64,000 nucleotides of DNA from Coriobacteriales bacterium (GCA_017515595.1 JAFWFL010000080.1:1200-65199), one strand, 5' to 3'; numbered from the stretch's first letter, positions 12,932 through 37,383 are shown. Numbers and translations: made by a program. Notes: a model not told the origin generated them from the sequence alone.

Positions 12932-12967
12932 CGCACAACTCCTCACCAACTACTACGTTACAAACCC

Positions 12968-13270
12968 TCAACCACGCTTACGAACAAACAGAACCAAACT
13001 CACCGCCACGCCAATGATAAAACTCAGCATCAGCGCTGCCATAAACACCAAAAGCATGTCTCTGAATACAAACCAGCCCATCAATATGGCGCCTGACATC
13101 AGCACAAACGAGATGCCCACTGCTATCAATGCCGGCCGCATTGACGTGCTTCTTTGCTTCTTGAGAAGCCGCAGGACAAATATATAGGGAAAGCTGCCCG
13201 CAATTCCGCATGCCACACCCACAAGTATAGGCAAAACCATATCCATAGGTGCGACCAAACCTCCCCTCAT
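12968..13270 (-). CDS. Small membrane protein at the head of the atp operon (AtpI/AtpZ-like)
   Basis: 100 aa with three or four hydrophobic helices, immediately upstream of atpB as in other atpI-BEFHAGDC operons. No diagnostic motif. Confidence 0.55.
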   Translation of the reverse strand: MRGGLVAPMDMVLPILVGVACGIAGSFPYIFVLRLLKKQRSTSMRPALIAVGISFVLMSGAILMGWFVFRDMLLVFMAALMLSFIIGVAVSLVLFVRKRG

Positions 13271-13433
13271 GCCCTACATACTCAGAGCAATCTTAAATGA
13301 TATCTGTCATGTGTGTATGTTTCAACCTCACAAAACGGTCATCGGCAAAATTTATCCAAAGTTTGCTCGATGTTCTCACAATTAACACACAGCAAATACA
13401 AGAGTGTTTCTTGATGATGAATTACTGCTACAA

Positions 13434-14114
13434 CTAAACCGTACCAAAAATACGGTCTCCCGCGTCACCCAAACCCGGAACAATATAGGCGCGCTCATTG
13501 AGATACTCATCAACCGCACCAACATATATATTAACATCAGGGTCTGCATCGAGCACACGGGCAATACCCTCGGGAGCGCCAAGCACGCAAAGGATTCGAA
13601 TGTCTTTTACATTGGCCTGACGCAGGTATTCTACAGCCGCAACCAAAGAACCGCCTGTTGCAAGCATGGGGTCAACCACCAGACAGGTGCGCTGGTCAAC
13701 ATCTGGCGGGAACTTGCAGTAATAGGTATGCGGCTCACGGGTCATGGGATCGCGATACAAACCAATATGGCCTACACGAGCTGCGGGTATAAGATCAAGC
13801 AGACCGTCAACCATACCCAAACCGGCGCGCAAAATGGGAATTACCGCTACTTTTTTACCGGCAATCATTTGGCAGTCAGACCAGGCAATTGGGGTTTCTA
13901 CCTTCACGTCGCGCAGGGGGAAGTCGCGTGTTGCCTCATATCCTTCAAAAAGTGCTATCTCACGAACCAGCTCGCGGAACTGCTTGCAACTGGTCTCTTT
14001 GTCGCGCAGAATGGCGAGCTTGTGCTGTACCATTGGGTGATCAATGAGATGCAGCCGGGGATTCTGGAGTATCTTGGTCTTAAGGGCGGCCGATTCTTCC
14101 GGGGTAATTGACAT
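13434..14114 (-). CDS. upp: Uracil phosphoribosyltransferase
   Basis: 226 aa. PRPP-binding loop LVVDPMLATGGS and C-terminal YIVPGLGDAGDRIFGT are canonical Upp. SD AAAGGAG. Confidence 0.93.
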   Translation of the reverse strand: MSITPEESAALKTKILQNPRLHLIDHPMVQHKLAILRDKETSCKQFRELVREIALFEGYEATRDFPLRDVKVETPIAWSDCQMIAGKKVAVIPILRAGLGMVDGLLDLIPAARVGHIGLYRDPMTREPHTYYCKFPPDVDQRTCLVVDPMLATGGSLVAAVEYLRQANVKDIRILCVLGAPEGIARVLDADPDVNIYVGAVDEYLNERAYIVPGLGDAGDRIFGTV

Positions 14115-14136
14115 AACGCAAATCTCCTTTCATGAA

Positions 14137-14679
14137 TTAACTCAAAGAACCAAGCTTCTCATCAAGCTTTGCGTTTATACGCTCGGCAAGCGTATCACGC
14201 AAAGGTGTTACCTGAGGCCCGTCTACATGAGCCTTTTTTCCTGCTTCATCAAGCTCCATTATTTTGCCTATACGCAAAGCATGGCGCCCGCCTTCAAACT
14301 GGGCGACAAGGAATACTTTAAGAATTTGCTTGTTGACATCAAGCGTAACATAACGCCCCGAAAGCGTAATGACATTTGCGTCATTGTGACGGCGCGCCAA
14401 ATCAGCAAACTCGGGAAGAATTACATTGGCGGCACGAATACCTGCCATTTTATTGGCTGCAATAGACATTCCAATGCCGGTGCCGCACACAAGCACGCCA
14501 CGGTCTGCTTCGCCGTTTGTTACCGCCTTGCAAACAAGGACAGCATAATCCGGGTAATCTACCCGCTCTGCTGAGGCCGGGCCCAGGTCAATAACCTCAT
14601 GACCCAATTCCTGCAAATAAGGTATTAACTCGGCTTTTTGATCAAAACCAGCATGATCAGAAGCAATTGCAATGCGCAT
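14137..14679 (-). CDS. rpiB: Ribose-5-phosphate isomerase B
   Basis: MRIAIASDHAGF.. and LVCGTGIGMSIAANK are RpiB/LacAB signatures. The start is set at ATG 14679, preceded by GAGAAGGAGAG; the longer track ORF reaching 14739 lacks an SD. There is a ~35-aa C-terminal extension. Confidence 0.88.
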   Translation of the reverse strand: MRIAIASDHAGFDQKAELIPYLQELGHEVIDLGPASAERVDYPDYAVLVCKAVTNGEADRGVLVCGTGIGMSIAANKMAGIRAANVILPEFADLARRHNDANVITLSGRYVTLDVNKQILKVFLVAQFEGGRHALRIGKIMELDEAGKKAHVDGPQVTPLRDTLAERINAKLDEKLGSLS

Positions 14680-14899
14680 GATCTTAGCTCTCCTTCTCAA
14701 TAACGGTTCGGTCCGCAAAACAAATCGAAAATCATCCAAAACACACCTATTTCTTTCATCTCTGTACTATACCGCTAAAGTGAAGATATTCTCGGCAGAA
14801 TTAAAGACTTACGGGCGAAACGCAAAAACAATCGTCAAACGTAGAAGCTTTGGAGTATACTGACAAAGAACCGTTAATGAAATGATTGGGGAGGCTGCT

Positions 14900-15916
14900 A
14901 TGGGTTCGTACGCTGACAAGGGGTTTTCTCGGCATATTTGCGTTTGTCTGGAGTTTCTCTCGGAGGAACACAAACAAGTCATAGCAGATGCCGCTCATAA
15001 TTTTGGATTCGATGTACGTTTTTTTGAGGACGAGAAAGACGCCGGGCTTGCGGAGTGTCTCCGGGAGGCTGAGGTTCTGTTTGCCCACTCGCCTGAGCTT
15101 GTGCGTGCGGCTTCAGACAAGCTCTCGTGGTATTGCTGCGCATATGCCGGCGTAGACCCCTATTGTGCCGACCCCGGCATGTTCGCAAACCCGAATTGTC
15201 TTTTGACAAACTCCTCGGGTGCTTACGACGAAACCATTGGCGAGCATCTTATTATGGTTGCGCTTATGCTTTTGCGCCGCATGCCCGAGTATGCTCATAT
15301 AATTGCCGGGAGAATCTGGAAGCGCGACCTTGCGGTACGCTCTATTTGCGACGTACGCATTACCGTACTGGGAGCCGGGAACATTGGGTCATCATTCGCC
15401 CGTAAAGCCGCAGCTCTTGGCGCACAAAATATAATTGGCGTAAACAGATCAGGCAAACAGCGCGAACCGTATGCCGAGATGTATGCGCTTGACGGACACG
15501 ACGGCAAGGGCGGGCTTGACGCGGTCCTCCCCCAAACCGACATGCTTGTGATGGCATTGCCCGGCACCAAAGACACGGTGGGCATTCTTTCGCGCGAACG
15601 TATAGCACTGCTCCCTCAGGATGCCCTCGTGATCAATATTGGACGCGGAAGCGCCATTGACCAGCCGGCAATTATTGATGCGCTTAACTCCGGTCATCTG
15701 GCAGGGGCTGCGCTCGACGTTATGACACCTGAACCTTTGCCTGCAAGCGACCCGCTCTGGGATGCAAAAAACGCCCTTATTACACCTCACATTTCGGGGA
15801 ACATGACGCTTACCTGGACCCGCGATGAGTGCGTTCGTCTGTTTTTGGAAGACCTTGCCAACTATGCCAATGGCAGGCCTCTTGTGCGGCTGGTTGATAA
15901 GACTGCCGGCTATTAA
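14900..15916 (+). CDS. D-isomer-specific 2-hydroxyacid dehydrogenase family protein, NAD-binding
   Basis: NAD fold VLGAGNIGSSFARKA and catalytic region NIGRGSAIDQPAIIDALNSGHLAGAALDVMTPEPLP..ITPHISG. The start is set at ATG 14900, 6 nt after GGGGAGG. The stop shares a TTAA (15913-15916) with the convergent LuxR gene. Confidence 0.85.
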   Translation: MGSYADKGFSRHICVCLEFLSEEHKQVIADAAHNFGFDVRFFEDEKDAGLAECLREAEVLFAHSPELVRAASDKLSWYCCAYAGVDPYCADPGMFANPNCLLTNSSGAYDETIGEHLIMVALMLLRRMPEYAHIIAGRIWKRDLAVRSICDVRITVLGAGNIGSSFARKAAALGAQNIIGVNRSGKQREPYAEMYALDGHDGKGGLDAVLPQTDMLVMALPGTKDTVGILSRERIALLPQDALVINIGRGSAIDQPAIIDALNSGHLAGAALDVMTPEPLPASDPLWDAKNALITPHISGNMTLTWTRDECVRLFLEDLANYANGRPLVRLVDKTAGY

Positions 15917-17574
15917 GCCTGTTTGGCGTCATCAATAATATCTATAAGCTCCTGGCGTGAATGAATGCCAAGCTTACTATAGACATTTTTTATATGTGAC
16001 CGCACGGTATTGATTGATACACCCAAAAGGTCGGCCGTTTTCTCAAGGCTGTACCCGCGCGAGAAATACTGCGCTGTTTCGCTTTCGCGCGCGGTGAGAG
16101 CATAGGTTTTTGCGACGTAATCCAGGGCGTCTTCGAATGTGCGGCCTTCAGGGAGGGGGCCGTTGGGTTCGCTCGGGGTTTCTGCGGGTTTCTCGGCCTG
16201 TAAAGACAATGAATCGCCCGTTGTCTCTTGAACGGGGCTTGCGGCGCCGGCTTGCTTCATAAGCATGTTATTCAAAAGCACTATAACACCTATGAGCAGG
16301 ATAAATATTATGCCCATGCTCACATATGAGGTTACCATTGAGGAATCAAACAATGCCTCGCGCAAGATTGCCGGAACGCCAATAAAGCGGGCAATACCTG
16401 AGATAGACTCGGGAATAAAGAGCATGAGACCCAACAATCTCGTAAGCCCAAACGGCATGTTTGGCGCCGAGAAAATCGCGAACAAGAACATGAGCAGCGT
16501 GAAACATACCCGCGCTGTGGTAATAAAGTCGCTCCCGAGAATACGCAGTTCTTCATCAGGCGAGAAGACCAAAAGAAACACTCCGGCAAAAAACAGTACC
16601 ACAAATACGGTCCAGTTCCAGAATATAACACGCTTGACCGGGAATTCCCGGACGAGGAGGATCACTGATATCAAAACCACCACAACATTAATGACGGTCA
16701 TCATTGTGGTATGCCAGGTAAGTCCCGTATTAACATACCAGGGATTTGTGACACCGCGGGCAACGTTACCGGTAAAACAAAAGAGCGCAAACAAGATCAT
16801 GAATGCAAACGGAATACCCGCTGATGCGAGCGATTGTGAAAGCGAAGGGATGGGTTTTTGCTCAGGGACTTCTATGCTCAGTCCACGTGACGGATGTGTA
16901 AGGAGAACCAAGCAACCAATGGTAAGCACAGGACAAAGCAAACGTATGATCCCTTGCAATACTATGGGCATCAACAGAACCGCATTGCTAAAAAAGCACA
17001 GGCCAAATGATAAAAACGCTGCGATTGCCGCCTTTTGTGCGGGCATCTCCATAAGCGCAGAGCCATACCACAAGACTGCCGCCATAAAATAAAGCGCGCT
17101 TAAAACCGCTCCTACTGATAAGACCGCTCCAAGGATTTCTTGCGGAACAGGAATCCAGAGCGCAAGCTCACTGATAATACCAATAACTGCAAGACACACA
17201 GCAAACACAAGAGACTCATGCCGGTGCATCCAATAAGCTATGCGCGGAGCAAGAAGCGCAACACATAAAGAAAAAAGCGCAAACGCTATGGCAAACGAGG
17301 TATAAGCAATTTGGGAGGTAGCGGTATCATACGCAAAAGAAGCAACCAAAAACGAGAGATGGTGAGCCCTGAAGTACGGCCAAAGCGGCGCCATACCCAA
17401 AGCAGGTAAAACAATATGCGCGAGTCCTTTGTCCGCAACGCCCACAAGCCTCTCCCTTGCTTTGCTGCCCACAAAATCATTTTTAAAATTGTAGCACGTC
17501 CAAGACCGTACATGACAACAAAACCGTAAGAGTTCCGTTTTATGCATGATGCGGTTCATATGAACGGAGAACAT
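15913..17574 (-). CDS. Polytopic-membrane LuxR-family transcriptional regulator
   Basis: About 10 or more hydrophobic segments followed by a C-terminal LuxR/FixJ HTH (TARESETAQYFSRGYSLEKTADLLGVSINTVRSHIKNVYSKLGIHSRQELIDII). The start codon is uncertain because no SD is seen at any of the first Met codons. Confidence 0.8.
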   Translation of the reverse strand: MFSVHMNRIMHKTELLRFCCHVRSWTCYNFKNDFVGSKARERLVGVADKGLAHIVLPALGMAPLWPYFRAHHLSFLVASFAYDTATSQIAYTSFAIAFALFSLCVALLAPRIAYWMHRHESLVFAVCLAVIGIISELALWIPVPQEILGAVLSVGAVLSALYFMAAVLWYGSALMEMPAQKAAIAAFLSFGLCFFSNAVLLMPIVLQGIIRLLCPVLTIGCLVLLTHPSRGLSIEVPEQKPIPSLSQSLASAGIPFAFMILFALFCFTGNVARGVTNPWYVNTGLTWHTTMMTVINVVVVLISVILLVREFPVKRVIFWNWTVFVVLFFAGVFLLVFSPDEELRILGSDFITTARVCFTLLMFLFAIFSAPNMPFGLTRLLGLMLFIPESISGIARFIGVPAILREALFDSSMVTSYVSMGIIFILLIGVIVLLNNMLMKQAGAASPVQETTGDSLSLQAEKPAETPSEPNGPLPEGRTFEDALDYVAKTYALTARESETAQYFSRGYSLEKTADLLGVSINTVRSHIKNVYSKLGIHSRQELIDIIDDAKQA

Positions 17575-17590
17575 AAGAGCTTGAATAGCA

Positions 17591-17620
17591 TTGACACTTA
17601 TATCTCGTTATCTCTAAGAT
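17591..17620 (+). promoter_or_regulatory. Candidate sigma70-type promoter for hicAB (TTGACA-N18-TAAGAT)
   Basis: TTGACA at 17591-17596 and TAAGAT at 17615-17620, about 100 nt upstream of hicA. The region is AT-rich, so chance matches are likely. Confidence 0.3.
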
Positions 17621-17640
17621 AATTCAAATACATTGTGAGT

Positions 17641-17697
17641 TATATATTAATTCGCTTAATATTAAATCTATTTAATACTTAAGTAGATTAATATATA
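17641..17697. promoter_or_regulatory. AT-rich nested palindrome upstream of hicA (candidate TA autoregulation operator)
   Basis: TATATATTAAT (17641-17651) is the exact reverse complement of ATTAATATATA (17687-17697). An inner ATTAAAT/ATTTAAT pair lies between them. Confidence 0.35.
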
Positions 17698-17716
17698 CAT
17701 ACCGAAAGGAAACACA

Positions 17717-17893
17717 TTGACAAAGCAAAGAATGCTGATCAAAGAACTCATAGATGCCGGATTTAAGTACATTAAAACAAACGGAGGACATGATAAGTAC
17801 CGAAAAGATAAGATAACAATTGCAATTCCTCATCATAGAGAAATAAGTGACCAGATGGCAGACATCATTAGAAAAGAAGCAGGTTTAAAATAA
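17717..17893 (+). CDS. hicA: HicA-family mRNA interferase toxin
   Basis: 58-aa ORF, below the track cutoff: (M)TKQRMLIKELIDAGFKYIKTNGGHDKYRKDKITIAIPHHREISDQMADIIRKEAGLK. It matches the HicA/YcfA pattern (G-G/S-H, PHH, C-terminal ..AGL). The TTG start at 17717 lies 4 nt after GAAAGGAAA; an alternative ATG is at 17732. Confidence 0.8.
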   Translation: MTKQRMLIKELIDAGFKYIKTNGGHDKYRKDKITIAIPHHREISDQMADIIRKEAGLK

Positions 17894-17935
17894 TCCAATT
17901 CTACTTTTTATTCTTATCATACGATCGGAGCAAAA

Positions 17936-18385
17936 ATGATTTTTATTCGAGAATTTGAATTATTCGAGAATGAAGGTATGACACTAGCAATTCCTCATGA
18001 TATGCCAGGTGGTACAGAGGGCTATAATTTTCAGGATGCAATCGAAATGGCCGCGGACTGGCTTAGGATGATGGCGGAGGATGCTCTTATACGTGGAGTT
18101 GATCTTCCCGGTGGAAATCTGGGTCAAGAACCGGAACATGGCGGTAAAATGGTTATCATTGCCATCCAGGCTGATCTAAAAAACGTCCCATCAATAACTG
18201 CGCTCGAAGCTGCTCAAAAACTTGGCATATCTCAAGCCCGTGTAAAACAGCTTTGCGATTCCGGACTTCTTGAGTCATGGAAAATTGGCAGAACGCGTAT
18301 GGTCTCACTCGATTCTGTCAATGCTCGTCTTGCAGAGCAGCCAAAAGCCGGACGCCCAAAACAAACTGAAGTAGTTTCTGCATAA
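17936..18385 (+). CDS. hicB: HicB-family antitoxin with a C-terminal HTH DNA-binding domain
   Basis: 149 aa, 42 nt downstream of hicA. HicB-like N-terminal part (..EGMTLAIPHDMPGGTEGYNFQDAIEMAADWL..). C-terminal HTH ITALEAAQKLGISQARVKQLCDSGLL. SD GGAG. Confidence 0.78.
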   Translation: MIFIREFELFENEGMTLAIPHDMPGGTEGYNFQDAIEMAADWLRMMAEDALIRGVDLPGGNLGQEPEHGGKMVIIAIQADLKNVPSITALEAAQKLGISQARVKQLCDSGLLESWKIGRTRMVSLDSVNARLAEQPKAGRPKQTEVVSA

Positions 18386-18478
18386 ACCCAAAATATTCAA
18401 CAACCATAATCAACAAACATAAATAACTGAAATATGGTGAATTACGTAGCTCATAAAACGGAAAAGAAACAAAATGGT

Positions 18479-19033
18479 TTATTGTTTTTCATCATCTGAA
18501 ATCATCCATCGTTTTGGTGTTTTGATTTGATGAAAGCGAATCGAGGGTCTTGTAAGTCTTATGTCGGTAAACCCCTGAATTGTATCAACCACATCACTAT
18601 TGCAAGAATCATTAAGAAGTATTAATGATAAAGCACCAGTTGGACACGCTTCGACACAAGCCGGTATTTCTCCTCTATCCTGACGGGTTGCGCACATGTT
18701 GCAACGGGTTACTTTATTGGTAGAAGCATTGTATTGCGGAGCATGGTAGGGGCAAGCTGTCACACACCTACGGCAACCATTACATAGACTCGAATTTATT
18801 TCAACAATCCCGTCATGTCTCTTATTAAATGCCCGCTCGGGACATACTCGGAAACACTCCGGATTTTCGCAGTGATTACATGCCATCGAGAGAAAAACTC
18901 CCTCTTCGATCTCAATTACGTGACGCCAGTGAATATGAGAAGGAGTTAGGTTTTCATTACGGCACGCCATTTCGCATGCCCGGCATCCAATACAAAGGCT
19001 GACATCAACAAGAAAAGCCTTCGGGTTGTTCAT
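18479..19033 (-). CDS. 4x[4Fe-4S] ferredoxin-type subunit (DmsB/PsrB-like) of the Tat-less molybdoenzyme
   Basis: 184 aa with four Cys clusters: CIGCRACEMAC, CNHCENPECFRVCP, CNGCRRCVTACP and CNMC..ACVEACP. Its start overlaps the upstream catalytic-subunit gene by 29 nt. Confidence 0.88.
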   Translation of the reverse strand: MNNPKAFLVDVSLCIGCRACEMACRNENLTPSHIHWRHVIEIEEGVFLSMACNHCENPECFRVCPERAFNKRHDGIVEINSSLCNGCRRCVTACPYHAPQYNASTNKVTRCNMCATRQDRGEIPACVEACPTGALSLILLNDSCNSDVVDTIQGFTDIRLTRPSIRFHQIKTPKRWMISDDEKQ

Positions 19034-21014
19034 ATGGGCTCACCTTTCTGATGCGGACCTTGCAATCAAAAAACGGGCAACTCTCTGCTGAAGGAAATGA
19101 CCCTCCAAAAAGATTGTTTACACAGAACCGATCGCTCTGTTCAACATAGACAACATTATTGGGAAGTTTTGCATTAACACAAGCCTCAGAAAGCATCGAT
19201 CCTCTTGCAGAGCACACCTCAATGGTATCTCCATTACGAATCTCTTGATTTGAGGCAATATGTGAGGATATCTCAGCGGTTGGCATCTTCTTTTGCATGG
19301 GATTAAGCCAGGTGAGAGTCTCATATTGAGAGTGAAATTTCAAAAGAGACTGAGGTGTAAGTAAATAATAAGGATAATCACAAACTGACAGACTGATTTC
19401 TGAATGTAAGTCAGATAATAAAGAACTATCAAAACAATATCTCCAGGTATCCGGGAGAGGTTCTTTGATTTTCTTAAATGACTGTTTGCGCAAATCATCA
19501 ATAGAGTTAAAACCGTACTCATCCTCCATCTGAGGAATAAAAAACTTGCATATCCAGTCAAGTGCGTTCATTTCTGATGGAAATGCCGAGAAACCCGGTT
19601 TGATTCGGTTTATATAGCTTGATAGTTCTCGGGCAATTTGCAGATCACTCTTTGATTCATAAAATGACGGAAGAGTTTTTTCATTCAAGGTAAGCCAATT
19701 ATGCCAAAAACTGACAATCAGATCTTCTTCCTCAAAAAAGGACGCTGCCGGCAACACAATGTCTGCTTGGCGGGCTGTTTTTGTGAGATACAAATCAACA
19801 CACACAACTAGCTCCAGCTGGCTAAATAAGTCATACCAAGCAGCTAAGTCAAAACCCTGTGAAAGAGGGTTGGCACAAGAAACCCAAAGCATTTTGAGAG
19901 GAGGATCCTGCAGGCCAAGAGCTTCTTGAGGAAAGGTATTTATATTAACAAATCTTCCCTCGCCATCAGTGCTGTGAGGTTTGCAGTACTCTATCATAAA
20001 CTCAGCAGGATCAGTGTAAGCTTTATTGTAAAAGTACAGACCTCCACCGGCAGTATAATAACTCCCTGTTAACGCAATCAATGCACTGATTGCGTTAACC
20101 GCTTTTCCAGCGCCACGATACCGTTGCATCCCAAACCCTGTCAGACATGCTATCGCGTTATGCTCCAAGAACAATTTACATAAACAATCAAAAGCTTCCG
20201 TTGAGAGTCCTGTATGAGAAAGTACCTCATCTATTAAAAGCCTATCGAGCTCCCGGGCAAATTCAGCGTAACCACATGTGTGTTCCTTTATAAAGCCTTC
20301 ATCTATGTGTTTTACTTCAACGAGCCGTTTGGCAATACCCAATGCCAGCCATTCATCAGAATGAGGCTCGATTTGAAAATAGTAATCTGCTCTCTTTGCT
20401 GTATTGGTAAAAACCGGATCTATAACAACAAGAGGAACGCTTTTGTCTTTACGGGCTTTGTAAATAATACGCATCAGATTGATATTTGTAGATGTAGGAT
20501 TTCCTCCCCAAATAACAATAAGATTAGCTTTATGCATGTCTTCAGGATCAGGGTGAGGAAAACTTCCCATGGTCTTCTCGAGCACATGTATTCCGGTGTC
20601 GGCGCATATGTTTCCTGTCAAATTGGTACACGATCCCAAACCGGCAAACATACCTTCAACAGCATGGTGAAGAAGGCCAATGTTTCCCGTTCCTTTATAG
20701 TATCCAATGGCTTTATTGGACCCAAAGGTTTTGTTGAGCTCAATTATCTTTAATGAAATAATATCATAAGCCTGGTCCCAGGAAATACGCCGCCATTCCC
20801 CTGATCCGCGGCGCAGTTGTTTGAGTGGATATCTTAAACGATAATCATCAAGTGTATATTGAATAAGTGAATAGCCTTTTGCACAAAGACTCCCTTGGGT
20901 ATAGCCATGCTTTGAATCGCCAATTACTCTTATTAGTCTTTCACCTTTTACATTGGAAAACATTGCGCATGATCCGTAGCAGTGACGCGGACAGGCATTG
21001 CGAAATTGAGTCAT
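19005..21014 (-). CDS. Molybdopterin (bis-MGD) oxidoreductase catalytic subunit, no Tat leader (predicted cytoplasmic), substrate unknown
   Basis: 669 aa from ATG 21014 (MTQFRNACPRHCYGSCAM..GSLCAKGY = C-x3-C-x3-C..C FS0 cluster motif). Overall layout is that of COG0243-type molybdopterin oxidoreductases (..VIWGGNPTSTN.., ..VVIDPVFTNTAKRAD..). No RR motif is present in any upstream in-frame extension. Confidence 0.85.
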   Translation of the reverse strand: MTQFRNACPRHCYGSCAMFSNVKGERLIRVIGDSKHGYTQGSLCAKGYSLIQYTLDDYRLRYPLKQLRRGSGEWRRISWDQAYDIISLKIIELNKTFGSNKAIGYYKGTGNIGLLHHAVEGMFAGLGSCTNLTGNICADTGIHVLEKTMGSFPHPDPEDMHKANLIVIWGGNPTSTNINLMRIIYKARKDKSVPLVVIDPVFTNTAKRADYYFQIEPHSDEWLALGIAKRLVEVKHIDEGFIKEHTCGYAEFARELDRLLIDEVLSHTGLSTEAFDCLCKLFLEHNAIACLTGFGMQRYRGAGKAVNAISALIALTGSYYTAGGGLYFYNKAYTDPAEFMIEYCKPHSTDGEGRFVNINTFPQEALGLQDPPLKMLWVSCANPLSQGFDLAAWYDLFSQLELVVCVDLYLTKTARQADIVLPAASFFEEEDLIVSFWHNWLTLNEKTLPSFYESKSDLQIARELSSYINRIKPGFSAFPSEMNALDWICKFFIPQMEDEYGFNSIDDLRKQSFKKIKEPLPDTWRYCFDSSLLSDLHSEISLSVCDYPYYLLTPQSLLKFHSQYETLTWLNPMQKKMPTAEISSHIASNQEIRNGDTIEVCSARGSMLSEACVNAKLPNNVVYVEQSDRFCVNNLFGGSFPSAESCPFFDCKVRIRKVSPYEQPEGFSC

Positions 21015-21151
21015 ACGGCAATACCCCCTCAATCAGACAACAGCGTGGGCTTCAACTCATCCCGCCTGCATTTTTAGCTGGCACCAACAAAAATAATACG
21101 TAATTATACTTGAAGTATTGTTTAGTTTTGAACCCAGCATCTTACAAAAGA

Positions 21152-22408
21152 TTATATAGTTTTATCGATGATATGCAAGCGCTTAATCTTAAACACAGCA
21201 ACAAGATTTAAACGCGTCTCCATGTCATTAAGAGAGCAATCCAGAATAGACTCTATTTTTGAAAGCTTGTATCGCAGGGTATTTCGGTGCAAAAAAGTAA
21301 TCTGTGCGGTCTCGTTTACACTAAAACCGCATTCTACAAAGCTTTCGAGAATACTTAGAAGATCCTCCTTTTCGTCTTCATACTCAAGAAGCGGCCCAAG
21401 AATTTGATGAAAGTACCCTCGTAGATCTTCAAGATCGTGTTTAAACAGAATACAGTCAAGACCCATTTCATTGAAAAACGAAATTTTTTCTCCCTTTAAG
21501 GTGCCAATCTCAAGAGCAATTTTCGCTTCTTGGAAGCTACGGAAAAGATCTACGGGCTCCTGATATGGCTGTCCTACACCACATGCGAGAGACGATATGC
21601 CGTTGTTCTCGTCAAATGATTTGAGAATATCCTCAAAGAGGCCAATTACTTCTCGTTTTTGATCAGATTTGCAGTTTCCTTTTGTTTCAATTACTGCTGT
21701 TATCATATTCCTGCTGATAGTTGTCCCCGTACTTGTCCCCCATTTTGAAGCGAGAACCCTGTCAACAGTAGTCTTAAGTATCTCTGCTGAATAGGAGTTT
21801 TGCAGAGTAGTAGAATAATCATAGGTACTGACCACCAGAACAAGATGCGGATGGTGAAACTCCCAGCCCCATATTTTGCCCATAGAAATAATATCGCTAT
21901 TGCTTTTTATGTTGCCAAATAACAGGTCATAGAAAAAGGCTTCTTTTAGTCTGCGGTTTTCTTGTTTGATACTTACTCGATTTTTGATGTGTGTCACATA
22001 AAGTGATAACGCCACTTCTATTGAGTCGTTAAACCTAGTGGGGATAGAACTATCTTCATCGCACAGAACGAGACAATATCCAAGCACTTGCTCATTCTGG
22101 GTTATAGTCCATCCGAATGAGCGGTATTGATTTTCTGTTCCCACTAAAACGCATGAAAAGGTGTATTCGTTCTCATTAACAGGCTTGCGCTGTATAATAC
22201 GATAGCCATTAGTTCCGAGGTTGTCCGGCGATGCAGCAACCACCTCTCCGTCAGCAGCCAAAACAACAACGGGACTATTTATCATAAGAGACAGGGCATC
22301 TGTAAGGGCACTGACATTCCGACCGGATGCTATAATCAATTGTTTAATGGTAACCTGCGATGCAGCATTATCATTGTCTGATTTCATGCTCTCACCTGTA
22401 ATTCTCAA
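21152..22408 (-). CDS. PucR/CdaR-family transcriptional regulator
   Basis: 418 aa. The C-terminal HTH ..NETAQITFLHRNTLRYKLSKIESIL is the PucR C-terminal HTH signature. The alternative start ATG 22387 (MKSDNDN) follows GGTGAG. Confidence 0.82.
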   Translation of the reverse strand: MRITGESMKSDNDNAASQVTIKQLIIASGRNVSALTDALSLMINSPVVVLAADGEVVAASPDNLGTNGYRIIQRKPVNENEYTFSCVLVGTENQYRSFGWTITQNEQVLGYCLVLCDEDSSIPTRFNDSIEVALSLYVTHIKNRVSIKQENRRLKEAFFYDLLFGNIKSNSDIISMGKIWGWEFHHPHLVLVVSTYDYSTTLQNSYSAEILKTTVDRVLASKWGTSTGTTISRNMITAVIETKGNCKSDQKREVIGLFEDILKSFDENNGISSLACGVGQPYQEPVDLFRSFQEAKIALEIGTLKGEKISFFNEMGLDCILFKHDLEDLRGYFHQILGPLLEYEDEKEDLLSILESFVECGFSVNETAQITFLHRNTLRYKLSKIESILDCSLNDMETRLNLVAVFKIKRLHIIDKTI

Positions 22409-22416
22409 AGACAGGG

Positions 22417-23109
22417 TTATTGCCAGGCATTATCCAACTCAAGAATAATATCAGCATAGTTTTTAAGGAACCGGGCAACAGCAAGAGCGGCTTGCGGATA
22501 GAGCAGGCATGGCATTGCGGTTTGGATAGCATTTGCGAAACTATCAATCCATACAAGCAGGTGCTTGTTTAAAAAATGCTGTTGGCTAAGCAGGCTTTTC
22601 TTGGCGTTTTCCATATCTCCCTGCTCGTAATATGAAAAAGCAGAGGCGGCCAGGTGTGCCATAAAATCTAACTCAAGAGCAAGATGATCATCTGCTTCAT
22701 GCGGATAATTACTCGGAACATAGCCATGCTGTTTATACAGCCTGCGCACATCAAATGTGCAAGACTGGAAAAGCATACGCTCATCAGTTGCAAAAACTGA
22801 TTCCCAAGGCGGGGCCGGAAGTTTTGATGGCCCAACTAAAAGATGCGTGTATTCGCTTAACAAACTGTCAAGCAAGCTGTCGTGATCTGCCAATCTTTTT
22901 GATGTAATATCCTCAAAAGCATTAAGAAGTATTTGCAGGTTTTCATCATTTTCATTGAATACCATGCCAAGTACGCTGAATGTATACTTATCAGCAAACA
23001 CATCAAGCATGGCATCATCTGGCTCGCTTCCAAAAATTCGATGAAAAAGCTGGTAGCTGTAATGGCACGCAGCCAGTATAACGGCAATGCTATCGTCTTG
23101 TGTAGCCAT
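22417..23109 (-). CDS. TorD/DmsD-family redox-enzyme maturation chaperone (module 1)
   Basis: LLVGPSKLPAPPWESVF..YPHEADDHLALELDFMAHLA is the TorD/DmsD signature. The start is set at ATG 23109 by alignment with the paralog at 37504. The track start at 23127 is a TTG. Confidence 0.85.
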   Translation of the reverse strand: MATQDDSIAVILAACHYSYQLFHRIFGSEPDDAMLDVFADKYTFSVLGMVFNENDENLQILLNAFEDITSKRLADHDSLLDSLLSEYTHLLVGPSKLPAPPWESVFATDERMLFQSCTFDVRRLYKQHGYVPSNYPHEADDHLALELDFMAHLAASAFSYYEQGDMENAKKSLLSQQHFLNKHLLVWIDSFANAIQTAMPCLLYPQAALAVARFLKNYADIILELDNAWQ

Positions 23110-23133
23110 GAATAAAACCGCCTTCAATGTCCC

Positions 23134-23163
23134 GAACCCCTTCCGTCAAACCGGAAGGGGTTC
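23134..23163 (-). other. 12-bp GC-rich hairpin between the Fe-S subunit gene and the chaperone gene (module 1)
   Basis: GAACCCCTTCCG (23134-23145) and CGGAAGGGGTTC (23152-23163) are exact complements with a 6-nt loop. There is no U-tract on the coding strand. Confidence 0.7.
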
Positions 23164-23223
23164 AGAGGTTATTTCTGATGAATGTATATTATCATGCATT
23201 CACTCTGATTACAGACATATATT

Positions 23224-23802
23224 CTAAACTTGTTTTTCTCTGAAATCCGGTAATTCAGCGCATGCTTTGCAGGAAATCAGAAGAGAAGGCTCTGTCATGC
23301 CTGCTGATGGCAGAATGGGGAGTTCACTCACAACGTCATCACCATGCTTCGCTCTGAGCTCATCTAAATCTCCAAATTCAAGAGCCCTCATTGGACATGC
23401 GTCAACACATGCCGGATTCCATCCATTATCGCGAAGCTGTTTGCAGCTGTCGCACTTTTGAACTATGCCCAGAGACTCAATATACTGCGGAACTGAATAA
23501 GGACAAGCTTGGATGCATGACAGGCAGCCAATGCATAGTTCATCATCGTGTTGTACGGTTCCATCTTCAGCAACAAACATGGCTCCAACAGGACATACGG
23601 GAACACATGCCGGATTTGCACAGTGGTTGCAAGTTCCCGAATAGTGATATGCTTTGGTTTGAGGGAATACTCCAACTTCAAAGGTTCGAACATTCCGGAA
23701 AAGAACTCCTATTTCAAGATTATTCTTATCCTTACAAGCAACTTGGCAGGCACGGCATCCGGTGCAGATGGTTTGATCAAAATAGAATCCCAGGGTACCC
23801 AT
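23224..23802 (-). CDS. DmsB-like 4x[4Fe-4S] electron-transfer subunit (module 1)
   Basis: 192 aa with CTGCRACQVAC, CNHCANPACVPVCP, CIGCLSCIQACP and CDSC..ACVDACP. Its ATG overlaps the stop of the A subunit (TAATG). Confidence 0.9.
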   Translation of the reverse strand: MGTLGFYFDQTICTGCRACQVACKDKNNLEIGVLFRNVRTFEVGVFPQTKAYHYSGTCNHCANPACVPVCPVGAMFVAEDGTVQHDDELCIGCLSCIQACPYSVPQYIESLGIVQKCDSCKQLRDNGWNPACVDACPMRALEFGDLDELRAKHGDDVVSELPILPSAGMTEPSLLISCKACAELPDFREKQV

Positions 23803-26510
23803 TACTCGTCATCTCCTTCCACAACAGCGATTCTCTGAGGACGTTCGACATCGGGGAGAAGGGGTTCTCCTGCGTACTTCTCAAACGTTACAATATTCGA
23901 ATTGAAAGCCTCAACACCTTGACCCTGAAGCAGTGCACTTGTCAGAATATTGTCTGCACCGCCCCTGTCGATGCCGGTTTCGGGATCAGGATCTACCCAA
24001 GAACCATGAGGGAGGCTAACAATACCAGGCATAAGCCTCTCGGTAACAACAGCCCTACGCAACGTCTTGCCATTCATGTTCTCGATAAGAACGGTATCGC
24101 CGTCTTCAATTCCCTTTTCGCGAGCATCTGATGCATTGAGATATACAGGGTTCGGAAATGCCTCACGCAGCTGAAGTACGTTGTCAAAACCGCTATGGGC
24201 ACGACGCAGGTAATGCGGGTTGATAATTTGATATGGGTATGCACCTTTCTCTTTGGTTTCCCAATTTTCAAAGGTACATTCATAGCCATTCTTAGGAGGT
24301 ACGTAAGTAGGCAAGGGTTTAATCTCACTCCAGCCTGCTGCATTGATTCGCTCGGCAAGCCCGGTCGAGTAGATCTCGATCTTTCCGCTGGCTGAAGAAG
24401 GCAGAGGATGAGCTTCAGGATCATTACGGAATGCTTCGAAAGCAATATAGCCATAGTTGTCACCGGGGCTACGCTTTACCTGATAGTATCCCGTCTTCAA
24501 GAATTCTTCGAGAGAAATCTTGCCTTCTTGCGGAGTACCCTCAACACCCCATGATTCAATATCTTCTTCAGTGATCGTAATGAGAGGACCATAGTCAACG
24601 CCATTGTCCTGGATTACTGTACAGCTCTTAAGCTCATTAAAGAATTGCTGCTTGGGTCCAAACGGATACACGCTGTCAACGTCAACTCCCAACCGCTTAC
24701 ACAACTCAATATCAATCTCTTGATCAGTTTTTGCTTCAAAGAGAGGCGGCACAACGTTGCGGTAAGCAATAACAACTTCGCGGTTGGGGAAGGAGTTTCT
24801 GGGGAAACCACCAATGGTTTCCCATTCAGTGGTTGTAGGAAGAACAAGGTCAGAGAACATCGCGCTGGTTGAGAGTGTGTAATCCTGTGTGACTACAAAC
24901 TCGACCTGTCTAACTGCTTCGATACCGCTGTTCATATCTTCAGCGGTCTGAAGCTTGTTCATATACTTATAGAAATAAATCATTTCGATATCGATATCTC
25001 GCTCTTCCCTCGGAAGATAGAGACTCTTCCCACAGAAATTATATTTGTGGGTAAGGATTGCATTCCATACCTCGCCCAGATGGATAGCATCATCAACCGG
25101 GTTTGATATTGTAGGAAGTCCGGCTGATCCGGGATTGACCAGCGAGAGACCGCCATTTGCGGTAAAATAGCTGTGGCTTGGGCCTGTCATGTGTCCCGAC
25201 TTACCCATATGGCCGGTCATGGCACCAATTGTCGCAATCATCTGAGGAAGGTTATCGGAATTCTGCGTACGTGCGCTTGCCCAACCACAAACAATGGCAA
25301 CCTTTTTGTCAACACGCATCTCCTGGGCAAGATACCTAATGCGCTCAGGTTCAAGACCGCAGATCTCAGATGCCCATTCAGGTGTCTTAGGAATACCGTC
25401 ATAAGTACCAAGCACATAATCCTTAAAGTTCTCTTCAGGATTAACACCTTCAGGCATATGATCTGCATCAAAACCCAAAGTACAACGGTCAAGGAAGTCC
25501 CAATCAATAAGAGGATTGTTTTCAGGATCATCTTCAGTGATCAGCGTATAGGCAACACCAAGGAGTAATGCCATATCGGTACCGGGGCGTACAGGCAACC
25601 AATCAGCGTCCATAGCTTGGGCAAGGTCATTGTAATAAGGATCAACAGCAATAAACTTGGCACCGGTTTTCTTTGCCTGAGCCCAATGATAATTATTAGT
25701 ACCGGCAGAATTCCATGCAGTATTGAGTGAAATCATAATGATGGTCTCACAATTACGCAGATCAAGCCTGTCGTTAATAGTATCGCGAGACGTGTATGAA
25801 GCCGCCCATTGAATATAGCCGGGGCGGTCAAAGACAGGATAGCTATAAGGCATATAGCCCATTAAAAACGGAGTAACCTGCCAAGAACCATATGAAGTAG
25901 AACCATAGTGAGACACGGCTCCACCATAAGAATTAATAGCGTTACAAGGTCCACCAAATGAAAGGATAGAACGGTTTCCGTACTTCTCGACAACGCGTTT
26001 AATCTCGCTGGACAGGATATCAAAAGCCTCATCCCATGAAATACGCACCCATTCATCCCTGCCGCGCAGCGATTTGTCTCCGCCACCTGGCTCCCAATGC
26101 TTACGCTTCATAGGGTACTTAAGACGGTCAGCTCCAAACACATTCTTGCGCTGGGAACGGCCGCGAATACAACCGCGTTGCTGAGGATAATCTGGTGAAT
26201 CCTCGTGAGTATCGTCTGTTTTCTGACGTACAACTTCGCCGTCTACAACTAATGCATAGTTAGCGCACTGACTACCACAATTGAACCAGCAGGCTGCGGG
26301 AATCCATTCTCCCTTATCACTCACAGCGATGTCCACGGAAGAATTGGTATCTTCTGCTTCAGTTTGTTCTGCACTCACCATATCTGCAAGTGCTAAACCA
26401 TTACCCATATGGCTTGTAAAGGCCAATCCAACGGCACCAACTGCAGCTGCATTCAGGAAGTCTCTCCGGTCAACCATTTTGCCGGCTGCTTGTTTAAGGA
26501 AATCTGACAT
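23802..26510 (-). CDS. Tat-exported DMSO-reductase-family molybdoenzyme, DmsA-like catalytic subunit (module 1)
   Basis: The start is set at ATG 26510, preceded by GGAGGAGTCA. Twin-arginine leader MSDFLKQAAGKMVDRRDFLNAAAVGAVGLAF. FS0 motif CWFNCGSQC..C. DmsA-like blocks DRLKYPMKRK, GTYDGIPKTPEWASEICG and SGKIEIYS. Confidence 0.9.
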   Translation of the reverse strand: MSDFLKQAAGKMVDRRDFLNAAAVGAVGLAFTSHMGNGLALADMVSAEQTEAEDTNSSVDIAVSDKGEWIPAACWFNCGSQCANYALVVDGEVVRQKTDDTHEDSPDYPQQRGCIRGRSQRKNVFGADRLKYPMKRKHWEPGGGDKSLRGRDEWVRISWDEAFDILSSEIKRVVEKYGNRSILSFGGPCNAINSYGGAVSHYGSTSYGSWQVTPFLMGYMPYSYPVFDRPGYIQWAASYTSRDTINDRLDLRNCETIIMISLNTAWNSAGTNNYHWAQAKKTGAKFIAVDPYYNDLAQAMDADWLPVRPGTDMALLLGVAYTLITEDDPENNPLIDWDFLDRCTLGFDADHMPEGVNPEENFKDYVLGTYDGIPKTPEWASEICGLEPERIRYLAQEMRVDKKVAIVCGWASARTQNSDNLPQMIATIGAMTGHMGKSGHMTGPSHSYFTANGGLSLVNPGSAGLPTISNPVDDAIHLGEVWNAILTHKYNFCGKSLYLPREERDIDIEMIYFYKYMNKLQTAEDMNSGIEAVRQVEFVVTQDYTLSTSAMFSDLVLPTTTEWETIGGFPRNSFPNREVVIAYRNVVPPLFEAKTDQEIDIELCKRLGVDVDSVYPFGPKQQFFNELKSCTVIQDNGVDYGPLITITEEDIESWGVEGTPQEGKISLEEFLKTGYYQVKRSPGDNYGYIAFEAFRNDPEAHPLPSSASGKIEIYSTGLAERINAAGWSEIKPLPTYVPPKNGYECTFENWETKEKGAYPYQIINPHYLRRAHSGFDNVLQLREAFPNPVYLNASDAREKGIEDGDTVLIENMNGKTLRRAVVTERLMPGIVSLPHGSWVDPDPETGIDRGGADNILTSALLQGQGVEAFNSNIVTFEKYAGEPLLPDVERPQRIAVVEGDDE

Positions 26511-26988
26511 TGACTCCTCCATCTTAATCAAACAACAAAAAATAGAAAGAGGCCAGATGATAAGTATCGTATTATGCGTTATTTTATGATTTGTTTAGGC
26601 TTTGGCGCCAAAAGCCCACTCTCTCATATGCAAAAACGAAATCCCTCATCTCTCCGATGTCATTTTAACACATCAATTATTCAAACCATATGTTTTAAAG
26701 CACACATTACGGTCCGTTTTTTGTGCACGGGTTACAGTACAAACGCATTCGTGTTGTCATGAATTAGGGAAATATCTGTGCGCAGGAACAATACTGAAGA
26801 GTCCGTTGCTCTTTTATGTTGTGTCCCATGATTTATGTGATCCATGTTTTACCTGCGGGTTTGTAAAATCATCAATGAGATGTGAGGACATTTTTGAGCG
26901 GGTAGGGCACACTTATGGGCAAGCCAGACGTCGTGAAGACATACGAATGGCGTTTATTCAAACTGTTCTCATGAAAGGGGAACTTAGC

Positions 26989-28545
26989 ATGGAAATGAAT
27001 CGTAGGCAATTTGTTGCTTCATCCGCAGCCGCTGCAGCTCTCGCCGCAAGCGCAGGTATTGTTTCTTCTGCAGCAGCAGACGAGGCTCCTGCCCAGTCAT
27101 GGCGTGTCCGCCCGGCAGCCGTAACCGAGTTTGCCGAGGAAATCGACGCTGACGTTGTTGTTGCCGGCGCCGGCATCAGCGGTGTTTGCGCAGCTCTCAA
27201 GGCTGTTCAGATGGGCGCAAAGACTGTTGTTCTTCAGAAGAGCCCCTACGTTATGACCCACGGCGGCAACTTTGGCGCCATCAACGACCGTTTCCAGAAG
27301 GAAGCCGGCAACCCCGAGATTGACCCCATGGACATTCTTCAGCATCACCTCAAGTACAACAACTATCGTCCGCAGTTTGAGTACGCAAAGTGCATCTTCG
27401 CCGAGAGCGCCGAGACTCTCGAATGGATTGCCGACTCAACCGACACCACCTGGAAGGCCTCCACTCCTCGTGAGACCAACAAGATGGACTGGGACAACAC
27501 CACCTTTGTTACCGGCCACAGCAACAGCGCCGGCAAGGCAATTGACCTTGCAAACGTTATCATGAACAAGGCCATTGAGCTTGGCGCCGAGCTTCTGCTC
27601 TCAACCCCCATTGTTGACACCATCGAGGACGAGAACGGCCGCGTTATCGCCGCTGTTGCCCAGCGTCTCGAGGATGGCGCTTACATCAAGGTAAACGCTG
27701 CTAAGGCCGTTATCCTCTCCACCGGCGACTACGGTTCAAACTATGAGATGTGCGCCGAGATGTGCCCCTGGGTTGTTGGCACCCACAACTACTACAACCC
27801 CAACGACAACACCGGTGACGGCCACAAGATTGGTACCTGGCTGGGCGCCAAGATGGAGACCCTGCCCCACACCAAGATGGCCCACATCCACAACTCAATC
27901 GACGGCAGCAACCTCACCGACTCTCCCGTCAAGAGCGACCCCTTCCTCTGGGTTAACCAGGACGGCAAGCGTTTCGCCAACGAGCACATGGAGTATGCAA
28001 TGGTCTGCAACACCGTGCGCGAGCAGCCGGGCGACGTCTTCTATGTAGTTCATGACGCAAACTACAACGCTCAGCGCGCAGCCTTCCTCAACGCCAAGGG
28101 CGAAATCAAGGACGAGCAGATCGAGACCGCAATCGAGCTTGGTTACACCGTTAAGGCCGACACTCTTGAGGAGTGCGCAGCTGCCATGGACATTCCTGCA
28201 GAGGCTCTTCTTGAGACCGTTGCCCGTTACAACGAGCTCGCAGCTGCCGGTATGGACGAGGACTTTGGCAAGCCTGCTCAGGATCTTCAGCCCATCGAGA
28301 CCGCTCCGTTCTATGTAACCCGCACCTACACCCCCATGGACGTAACCATGGGCGGCCTTATGGTCAACACGAAGATGCAGGTTCTCAAGGAGGACGGCAG
28401 CATCATTGAGGGTCTTTATGCAACCGGTAACACCGCCGGCGGCTTCTACGGCGGCATTGACTATGACCTCGAAGTAGACGCATTCAGCCTTGGCCGCGCC
28501 GTAACTTCCGGCCGCCTTGCCGCTCAGTACGCCTGCGCCGAGTAA
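26989..28545 (+). CDS. Tat-exported FAD-dependent oxidoreductase (fumarate-reductase/flavocytochrome-c flavoprotein-like)
   Basis: The start is set at ATG 26989 (MEMNRRQFVASSAAAAALAASAGIVSSAAA, a Tat leader), after AAAGGGGAA. Rossmann motif DVVVAGAGISGVCAAL. C-terminal GLYATGNTAGGFYGG. The 129 upstream codons of the track ORF are rejected. Confidence 0.87.
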   Translation: MEMNRRQFVASSAAAAALAASAGIVSSAAADEAPAQSWRVRPAAVTEFAEEIDADVVVAGAGISGVCAALKAVQMGAKTVVLQKSPYVMTHGGNFGAINDRFQKEAGNPEIDPMDILQHHLKYNNYRPQFEYAKCIFAESAETLEWIADSTDTTWKASTPRETNKMDWDNTTFVTGHSNSAGKAIDLANVIMNKAIELGAELLLSTPIVDTIEDENGRVIAAVAQRLEDGAYIKVNAAKAVILSTGDYGSNYEMCAEMCPWVVGTHNYYNPNDNTGDGHKIGTWLGAKMETLPHTKMAHIHNSIDGSNLTDSPVKSDPFLWVNQDGKRFANEHMEYAMVCNTVREQPGDVFYVVHDANYNAQRAAFLNAKGEIKDEQIETAIELGYTVKADTLEECAAAMDIPAEALLETVARYNELAAAGMDEDFGKPAQDLQPIETAPFYVTRTYTPMDVTMGGLMVNTKMQVLKEDGSIIEGLYATGNTAGGFYGGIDYDLEVDAFSLGRAVTSGRLAAQYACAE

Positions 28546-28574
28546 AACACACGCTCAATCATACGCAGTCAGTA

Positions 28575-28609
28575 AAGGCCGTGCAGTTTAAACTGCACGG
28601 CCTTTTTTA
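28575..28609 (+). terminator. Rho-independent terminator after the flavoprotein gene
   Basis: Stem GGCCGTGCAGT/ACTGCACGGCC (28577-28587 / 28592-28602) followed by TTTTTT (28603-28608). Confidence 0.85.
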
Positions 28610-28612: not shown

Positions 28613-28645
28613 CTTCCCCTTGAGGGGAAGGCTTCTTTATTTTTG
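28613..28645. terminator. Second hairpin (CTTCCCC-TTGA-GGGGAAG) plus a T-rich tail in the convergent intergenic region
   Basis: 7-bp GC stem at 28613-28630 followed by GCTTCTTTATTTTT. It lies between the convergent genes ending at 28545 (+) and 28647 (-) and probably serves both directions together with the previous hairpin. Confidence 0.5.
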
Positions 28646-37371: not shown

Positions 37372-37383
37372 TGTAGTATTCAT

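Follow-up and report, generated by a model that had tools for sequence, protein, structure and literature searches.

According to Little et al. (bioRxiv 10.1101/2022.12.26.521950, citing Dong et al. 2022), Eggerthellaceae and other Coriobacteriia carry arsenals of reductases that have transmembrane regulators of the LuxR type as neighbours. In Eggerthella lenta, transmembrane regulators adjoin 64 reductase genes, and for such arsenals horizontal transfer and duplication were both proposed there (bioRxiv 10.1101/2022.12.26.521950). The highest count of molybdenum (Mo) oxidoreductase genes is that of Desulfitobacterium hafniense, with 53-57 genes mostly without a known function, and E. lenta ranks next (PMC3306737). 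Here we analyzed a block of low guanine plus cytosine (GC) content at positions 17575-26988 of a 64,000-nucleotide (nt) stretch of DNA from an uncultured gut Coriobacteriales bacterium (GCA_017515595.1 JAFWFL010000080.1:1200-65199), which is called the window below. Based on our analysis the block is probably DNA of foreign origin that has become fixed in the chromosome of this Coriobacteriales lineage, whose GC content is ~51%. A preliminary description of the same DNA had already called it one horizontally acquired block. The acquisition is supported by composition, by relatives in the Bacillota, by a recurrent gene linkage and by the splitting of a LuxR-flavoprotein gene pair, while the notion of a single block has to be qualified, since the pattern of identities suggests at least two histories.

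Like the Eggerthellaceae arsenals, the window encodes reductases exported by twin-arginine translocation (Tat), namely a flavoprotein (at 26989), the DmsA-type protein DmsA2 (at 33912) and a second flavoprotein (at 54085), and a polytopic LuxR regulator lies beside two of them. LuxR1, the regulator at the left flank of the block, also fits this description by its predicted polytopic N-terminus, its C-terminal GerE domain and its homologues beside flavoprotein orthologues. The block differs from these arsenals in that it has a cytosolic PucR instead of a membrane LuxR, in that it includes a cytoplasmic Mo enzyme, and in a composition unlike that of the other reductase loci of the window. With genomic islands and islets the block shares abrupt shifts in GC, in GC at third codon positions (GC3) and in oligonucleotide usage, an accessory redox or respiratory cargo that brings a regulator of its own, a putative toxin-antitoxin pair at one end, a lineage-specific and non-syntenic location, and relatives in another phylum. 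It differs from them in having no integrase, recombinase, transposase, transfer RNA (tRNA) target or flanking direct repeats and no link to a plasmid, a phage or an integrative and conjugative element, and in being small (9.4 kb) and probably mosaic in its make-up.

If this reading is right, the block gives a concrete picture of how gut Coriobacteriia can enlarge their reductase arsenals: a whole cassette of Bacillota type, with two Mo enzymes and a regulator of its own, is placed between a native regulator and the reductase that goes with it, and no machinery of a mobile element can be seen. Compositional islands with accessory redox genes are common, and the block is otherwise ordinary for a group known for patchy reductase arsenals. 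Its wider interest is limited to the uncharacterised linkage of genes for PucR, a cytoplasmic Mo enzyme, an iron-sulfur (FeS) protein and DmsAB, a combination that is flagged here in at least eight loci as conserved but unstudied.

Composition and borders of the low-GC block

Windowed GC, GC3 and tetranucleotide usage, with the 64-kb window rather than the whole genome as the background, all set the block apart from its surroundings. The GC content is 43.0% in the block and 51.1% in the remaining window, and windows of the same size outside the block have a minimum of 48.5% (mean 51.3%, standard deviation (sd) 1.4). A maximum-likelihood scan with two change points sets the left border at 17475 and the right one at 27000, and gains 108 in log-likelihood compared with a model that has no change point. 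These borders agree with the edges of the preliminary description (17575 and 26988) within ~100 nt on the left and 12 nt on the right, and its seven hand counts of G+C in 100-nt samples were all exact (30, 36, 43 and 37 inside; 56, 58 and 52 outside). The eight block genes have GC3 values of 0.31-0.43 (mean 0.37) compared with 0.41-0.70 (mean 0.54, sd 0.066) for the 40 genes outside it (Mann-Whitney p = 1e-8). Tetranucleotide usage is furthest from that of the remaining window over 16-27 kb, with L1 distances of 0.25-0.33 vs 0.13-0.23 elsewhere. When normalized for base composition, the tetranucleotide correlation is lowest for 5-kb windows that start at 18-24 kb (0.71-0.77), and the atp operon is the sole other place where it is comparably low.

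Both borders lie in AT-rich intergenic DNA. In the fine GC profile the left border (17575-17716) is very AT-rich, with 28-30% GC, and the right border is a divergent intergenic stretch of 478 nt between dmsA and the flavoprotein gene (26511-26988), with 34-42% GC as seen from the sequence and the same profile. The right edge looks sharper than it is, as the adjoining flavoprotein gene stands out in turn by its high GC (GC3 0.70). Within the block the GC drop comes in two steps, with 41.7% over 17.0-23.2 kb and 45.9% over 23.2-27.0 kb. Lesser low-GC patches are found in the window at 38-40 kb and 62.5-64 kb.

One explanation that has to be considered is that the block is native DNA, inherited vertically in a lineage that drifts towards AT and in which weakly expressed or weakly selected genes have drifted furthest. 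Such a drift is plausible, as the core genes of this lineage have 52-56% GC, well below relatives at 61-64%, and GC3 values of 0.41-0.43 are also found in a few genes outside the block (rpiB, TorD2, LuxR2 and the open reading frame (ORF) 61770-63917). Yet the paralogous accessory reductase genes of the same window have high GC3 values (DmsA2 0.61, second flavoprotein 0.66, flavoprotein 0.70), and low GC is therefore not general to accessory reductase genes here. The change is also abrupt at both borders, the normalized tetranucleotide usage differs as well, the named relatives as well as the recurrent gene linkage point to the Bacillota, and the block breaks up a LuxR-flavoprotein pair that is kept together elsewhere. 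Taken with these points, we consider native DNA improbable.

A different kind of explanation is that assembly or binning joined the DNA of a low-GC organism into a Coriobacteriales contig, and the source of the window is indeed a metagenome-assembled genome. However, a 34-kb ENA MEGAHIT contig (L001) matches positions 13494-27574 with 100% identity over 14,081 nt and spans both junctions, a third contig (39 kb) has the same LuxR1 and flanking proteins, and the junctions lie in intergenic DNA with intact genes on both sides. Since L001 is identical across both borders, the block is not an assembly join; an assembly chimera was rejected on this ground, and an artefact of this kind retains hardly any probability.

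The reductase cassette and its relatives

Six of the block genes are co-directional on the minus strand, in the order DmsA-DmsB-TorD-PucR-cytoplasmic Mo enzyme-FeS. The gene calls of the preliminary description hold in a Pfam check (HicA, HTH_17, Fer4_11, Mo oxidoreductase, PucR, TorD, DmsB and DmsA), but of the three reductase gene sets that it counted only two are in the block (Mo-FeS and DmsA-DmsB-TorD), as the Tat flavoprotein lies outside. The catalytic subunit DmsA1 is a protein of 902 amino acids (23802-26510, minus strand) of the DmsA type, with Mo bound by bis-pyranopterin guanine dinucleotide (bisPGD) and the Pfam domains Molybdop_Fe4S4, Molybdopterin and Molydop_binding. It begins with a twin-arginine signal, DRRDFLNAAAVGAVGLA, whose RRDFL motif was read from the sequence. 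DmsA1 is, by its domains, a member of the dimethyl sulfoxide (DMSO) reductase superfamily that falls below the curated family cut-off, with 461 bits against NCBIfam TIGR02166 dmsA_ynfE (cut-off 778). It is followed by a DmsB-type FeS subunit with four clusters (192 amino acids, 23224-23802, minus strand; Pfam Fer4_11), which reaches 197 bits against NCBIfam DMSO_dmsB, just under the cut-off of 214, and by a Tat-proofreading chaperone of the TorD/DmsD family (230 amino acids, 22417-23109, minus strand; Pfam Nitrate_red_del E = 3.5e-29). An ORF for a DmsC membrane anchor is absent within 17.5-27 kb.

A second DmsA-DmsB-TorD module is located at 33912-39654 and is followed by a second polytopic LuxR regulator. 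There DmsA2 has a GC3 of 0.61, and TorD2 and LuxR2 have a low GC3 (0.43), unlike DmsA2 and DmsB2. A recent duplication of the module 2 DmsA as the source of the module 1 DmsA was rejected, as the two share 37% identity.

The second part of the cassette starts with a cytosolic regulator of the PucR/CdaR family (411 amino acids, 21152-22387, minus strand; PF13556 HTH_30 E = 9.5e-18 and PF17853 GGDEF_2 E = 2.8e-12), which presumably controls the operon. Downstream is an oxidoreductase of 669 amino acids with Mo or tungsten (W) bound by bisPGD and without a Tat signal (19005-21014, minus strand; Pfam Molybdop_Fe4S4, Molybdopterin and Molydop_binding). It has an N-terminal 4Fe-4S domain and a Cys as the predicted metal ligand. 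The FeS gene (18479-19033, minus strand; Pfam Fer4_11 E = 7e-27) overlaps the 3' end of the cytoplasmic Mo enzyme gene by 29 nt and encodes its partner subunit, a ferredoxin-type protein of 184 amino acids with four clusters and no signal peptide. The Tat-less Mo enzyme scores best against cytoplasmic formate dehydrogenases, with 208 bits against NCBIfam Fdh-alpha (cut-off 666). In alignments, the Sec/Cys140-His141 pair of FdhF is replaced by Cys-Ala, where 'NICAD' stands opposite 'RLCHA' (7qv7) and 'RVXHG' (1aa6). A canonical, FdhF-like formate dehydrogenase was therefore rejected, as the catalytic His is replaced by Ala. In NCBIfam no block protein reaches any equivalog cut-off, and hence none can be given a function at the equivalog level.

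On the reading that fits these data best, the core of the block (18.5-26.5 kb) is a self-contained accessory redox cassette with one direction of transcription. It comprises an exported DmsA-DmsB with its TorD, the PucR regulator, and the Mo/W enzyme of the cytoplasm, with its Cys ligand, together with the ferredoxin-like subunit of that enzyme. This gene combination is typical of Desulfitobacteriaceae and other Bacillota (Clostridia and relatives) and would have been exchanged across phyla. The cassette, together with a hicA/hicB-like pair at the left end, lies between a membrane LuxR regulator and the flavin reductase found with this regulator in related genomes; entry would most likely have been by recombination, or else the scars of entry have eroded. 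The direction and the timing of the transfer are inferences as well.

The relatives of the cargo point to the Bacillota. Besides itself, the closest named relatives of the Tat-less Mo enzyme are from Desulfitobacterium (52-54%), Desulfosporosinus (50%) and Bacillaceae (~43%), and those of DmsA1 are from Desulfitobacterium, Desulfosporosinus, Peptococcaceae and Gracilibacter at 55-58%. Coriobacteriia are absent among the named matches of both proteins. Moreover, genes for PucR, Mo enzyme and FeS are linked to DmsAB of the DmsA1 type in at least eight loci of 40-57% GC (D. hafniense DCB-2 and at least seven more). A PucR homologue precedes the Mo-FeS genes in L046, L048-L051, L069/70 and L085/86, and in L075 all three genes are there in a different order. 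PucR, Mo and FeS genes, in this order, lie directly beside divergent DmsAB genes in D. hafniense DCB-2 (CP001336), L048, L049 and L050. A scan of JGI metagenomes with DmsA1 added L069/70, L074, L075 and L085/86, in which the linkage is kept at 40-45% GC. Gut loci of high GC (58-67%) have DmsA-DmsB(-TorD) only.

The cluster of D. hafniense DCB-2 (CP001336, 2.53-2.54 Mb) resembles the block in having DmsA-DmsB (and TorD) by a PucR gene, a Tat-less Mo enzyme of 663 amino acids and a FeS protein of 184 amino acids. The identities to the block proteins are 65% for FeS, 53% for Mo, 60% for DmsB, 50-56% for DmsA, 49% for TorD and 41-44% for PucR. The two differ in arrangement: in Desulfitobacterium DmsAB is divergent from PucR-Mo-FeS, is accompanied by genes for the DmsC anchor, and a gene for 118 amino acids, which is absent from the block, comes after FeS, whereas in the block all genes are co-directional, DmsC is missing and TorD comes after DmsB.

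The closest copy of the cassette is L051 (ENA ERZ28653778 scaffold_13105, 8.6 kb, 57% GC, from a ruminant sample), which has the identical co-directional order DmsA-DmsB-TorD-PucR-Mo and DNA that is 72-76% identical to the block. It is a single close comparator, with an N gap inside dmsA and an end inside the Mo gene. Further away, DmsA1 is 64-65% identical to its counterpart in L052/L064, and in a rough neighbour-joining tree of DmsA the window falls beside L052 (48% GC), within a clade made up of both high- and low-GC loci. In L051 the ORFs just upstream of dmsA (positions 1-900) have weak matches to phage head-tail joining proteins below the Pfam cut-offs (HK97 gp10-like E = 1e-3; tail completion gp17 E = 4e-4). 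In L052/L064, another relative, a TetR gene is upstream. From these different upstream neighbourhoods, the cassette occurs in unrelated contexts. The cassette family has evidently been swapped between phyla more than once.

The comparison with L051 also raises the question of whether the block arrived as one unit. The identity of the proteins falls from 84-88% for DmsA and 72% for DmsB to 49-50% for TorD, 45% for PucR and 56% for Mo, and the Mo enzyme of L051 is nearer to that of Desulfitobacterium (62%) than to that of the block. The GC step from 41.7% to 45.9% at ~23.2 kb, near the DmsB/TorD junction, coincides with this break in identity. The share of amino acids with AT-rich codons (F, Y, M, I, N and K; FYMINK) points the same way, as an enrichment is found in Mo, PucR and TorD but not in DmsA and DmsB. 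This share is 0.29 in the Mo and PucR proteins of the block vs 0.18 in L051, with 0.24-0.27 in D. hafniense and L048, and the block value is close to that of a 40%-GC locus. The high values of Mo and PucR suggest a long residence in a genome of ~40% GC. It is possible, with a chance somewhat below even, that the block is a mosaic of two or three pieces that were separately acquired or recombined: the hicAB pair, which is absent beside the cassette at every other locus; TorD-PucR-Mo-FeS from a low-GC lineage; and DmsA-DmsB, which would share a recent ancestry with a higher-GC, Coriobacteriia-like contig. However, unequal evolutionary rates could mimic the pattern of identities, as chaperones and regulators evolve fast, and the identical gene order in L051 fits inheritance as a single unit. 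The one close comparator, a scaffold with an N gap that ends inside Mo, also limits this argument.

Another idea concerns the function of the linkage. PucR, DmsAB and the cytoplasmic Mo enzyme with its ferredoxin-like subunit could form one uncharacterised two-compartment pathway, passed between Clostridia and Coriobacteriia in the form of one cassette, that allows the use of a new gut electron acceptor; we consider this rather unlikely. In such a pathway reduction outside the cell might be followed by transformation of the product inside, or electrons from the cytoplasmic enzyme might be passed to the exported one. The two Mo enzymes may be functionally coupled.

The flanks of the block and its possible mode of entry

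On the left the block is flanked by the gene of LuxR1, a LuxR/GerE regulator (15913-17574, minus strand; Pfam GerE E = 4.5e-12). Its hydropathy shows ~10 hydrophobic segments, and its GC of 48% and GC3 of 0.51 are normal for the window; NCBI calls the protein with 510 amino acids, which places the start near 17445. On the right is the gene of a Tat-exported flavin reductase of 518 amino acids (26989-28545, plus strand; Pfam FAD_binding_2), whose RRQF motif and start were read from the sequence and whose GC3 of 0.70 is ~2.5 sd above the window mean. Its relatives at 79-86% identity are on contigs of 64-69% GC, and more distant named matches are from Adlercreutzia, Coriobacteriales and Bifidobacteriaceae. 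Both flanking genes are of Coriobacteriia type. Directly after the flavoprotein stop codon there is a perfect 16+16-nt palindrome at 28574-28605 (AAAGGCCGTGCAGTTT / AAACTGCACGGCCTTT), followed by a terminator-like hairpin at 28613-28630.

In relatives these two flanking genes belong together. A LuxR/GerE gene is immediately upstream of the flavoprotein gene and on the same strand in L053, L056 and L057-L059, and it is two genes away in L055. These LuxR genes (L053, L055-L059) are specific homologues of LuxR1; the identity is 34-55% and extends over the full length wherever the contig is long enough. Thus the pair is kept together in all five kinds of relatives that were recovered, adjacent in four of the five and two genes apart in the fifth. 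In the window LuxR1 is 9.4 kb from the flavoprotein gene and on the opposite strand, and the block therefore separates a conserved regulator-reductase pair. Relatives with a flavoprotein orthologue at 68-86% identity carry no block; all are distant (64-69% GC) and have the LuxR gene inverted. At the DNA level the window resembles L056 only from 26972 on, just 17 nt ahead of the flavoprotein ATG, and blastx and tblastx searches of the intergenic DNA gave no trace of the relatives' LuxR-flavoprotein spacer except 12 nt at the ribosome-binding site.

The wider surroundings are also variable. Relatives found through atpD (61-64% GC) are syntenic with the window over 4.9-14.7 kb (murA, atp operon, upp and rpiB) and carry an ABC transporter instead beyond rpiB. 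As no synteny is left beyond rpiB, the part of the window with the block is specific to this lineage. A gene for a D-2-hydroxyacid dehydrogenase follows at 14882-15916 (plus strand, 54% GC) and its convergent end overlaps the 3' end of LuxR1 by 4 nt. Its best matches among 185,579 species genomes are from Oscillibacter and Oscillospiraceae (53-59%) and more distant taxa, with no Coriobacteriia. This gene may be a second, separate acquisition across phyla beside the block. The gene of the flavoprotein may have come in recently from a relative that resembles Eggerthellaceae and has high GC, and the stretch from 14.8 kb on looks like a plasticity zone.

From this arises an explanation that complements foreign origin rather than competing with it, and which we hold to be nearly an even call: part of the contrast would come from imported flanks (the flavoprotein, perhaps the 2-hydroxyacid dehydrogenase), with 14.8-28.5 kb as a plasticity zone built by several transfers. 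The GC3 of 0.70 of the flavoprotein gene, whose DNA is 80-81% identical to contigs of 64-67% GC, the Oscillibacter/Oscillospiraceae relatives of the dehydrogenase (53-59%, no Coriobacteriia found) and the end of synteny at rpiB (14.7 kb) are in line with it. Yet the mean GC of the remaining window exceeds that of the block by 8 points, and equally large windows outside the block never go below 48.5%; the block is therefore an outlier without help from the flanks.

How the block entered is less clear from the sequence. No integrase, recombinase or transposase is encoded, as all ORFs in 17.5-27.0 kb belong to other families, and ARAGORN found no tRNA or transfer-messenger RNA gene in the whole 64-kb window. 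A search for att-like repeats at both borders gave longest exact matches of 10 nt in direct and 12 nt in inverted orientation, which are lengths that shuffled sequences reach as well. The intergenic DNA of the block (140, 93, 137 and 478 nt) holds no pseudogene remnants detectable by blastx or tblastx, and no plasmid, phage or viral relative of the block was found in the collections searched. The best plasmid match to the Mo enzyme is only 34% identical, and the cassette is thus not known from plasmids. The preliminary description had likewise seen no integrase, transposase, tRNA or flanking direct repeats, and the computational searches agree with it, down to chance-level matches at the two borders. 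Its suggestion that the block was recently mobilised is not supported: there is no mobility gene, tRNA, border repeat, remnant or plasmid or phage relative to sustain it, and the nearest copy is 72-76% identical in DNA.

Several points weigh against a foreign origin of the block, or at least against a simple form of it. No integrase, transposase, tRNA or border repeat shows how it came in, and no close relative with an empty site was found. The orientation of LuxR is opposite in the relatives, and a simple insertion is therefore insufficient; an inversion or another rearrangement is needed. With identities of only 50-58%, the nearest named relatives do not point to a particular donor. As the DmsA tree mixes high- and low-GC loci, DmsAB could stem from another Coriobacteriia lineage. 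High-GC hosts harbour the cassette too, as shown by its closest copy, L051, at 57% GC. In addition, the background composition is that of 64 kb and not of a whole genome.

The putative toxin-antitoxin pair at the left end and other genes of the window

HicAB systems are type II toxin-antitoxin systems, and the left end of the block resembles them in having a small gene for a HicA-domain toxin directly upstream of a gene for a DNA-binding protein, with a promoter-like site and an inverted repeat upstream. The toxin gene (17717-17893, plus strand; Pfam HicA_toxin PF07927) encodes 58 amino acids from a TTG start, with an ATG at 17732, and at 34% it has the lowest GC in the block. The assignment is confirmed by PF07927 (E = 1.5e-7, 31.9 bits vs a cut-off of 27) and by phrog_353 'toxin' (E = 7e-11). 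After a gap of 42 nt follows the gene of a putative HicB-like antitoxin of 149 amino acids (17936-18385, plus strand), which has a C-terminal HTH_17 domain (Pfam E = 2.7e-7), so that the toxin gene is upstream of that of the protein with the DNA-binding domain.

The second protein is where the pair differs from described HicAB systems. It bears an HTH_17 domain of the MerR/excisionase type, Pfam HicB was not found in it even at E values up to 10, and its N-terminal domain is weakly HicB-like by a single PHROG match (phrog_497 'HicB-like', residues 4-83, E = 0.004). A PDB sequence search with this protein gave no match, and the AlphaFold model from the single sequence, with a predicted local distance difference test (pLDDT) score of 41, is unusable. 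No match to the protein was found in plasmid, phage or IMG/VR viral collections, and the pair as such has no close relatives there. The "HicAB module" of the preliminary description thus stands for HicA, while the second gene is only weakly recognisable as hicB. Upstream of hicA a promoter scan gave a promoter-like site at 17591-17620 (plus strand), and a 19-nt inverted repeat at 17641-17659 / 17679-17697 may serve as an operator.

The pair had also been seen as a stabilising passenger of the block. This view finds no support in the comparison, since hicAB is not beside the reductase cassette in any other cassette locus that was recovered. Because of this absence, a co-transfer and a stabilising role of hicAB are a conjecture.

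Some other features of the window are of interest. The ORF at 61770-63917 (minus strand) encodes 715 amino acids without a Pfam match; its GC3 of 0.405 is the lowest outside the block, it lies in a patch of 44% GC where the window ends, and it may be another foreign segment. In relatives a gene for cytidine deaminase is located between upp (or rpiB) and atpB, and in the window there is a gap of 480 nt at 12950-13433 with no such gene. Near the beginning of the window, at 30-1538 on the minus strand, a secreted protein of 502 amino acids carries an NAD-glycohydrolase translocation F5/8 type C domain (PF25302, E = 4e-22).

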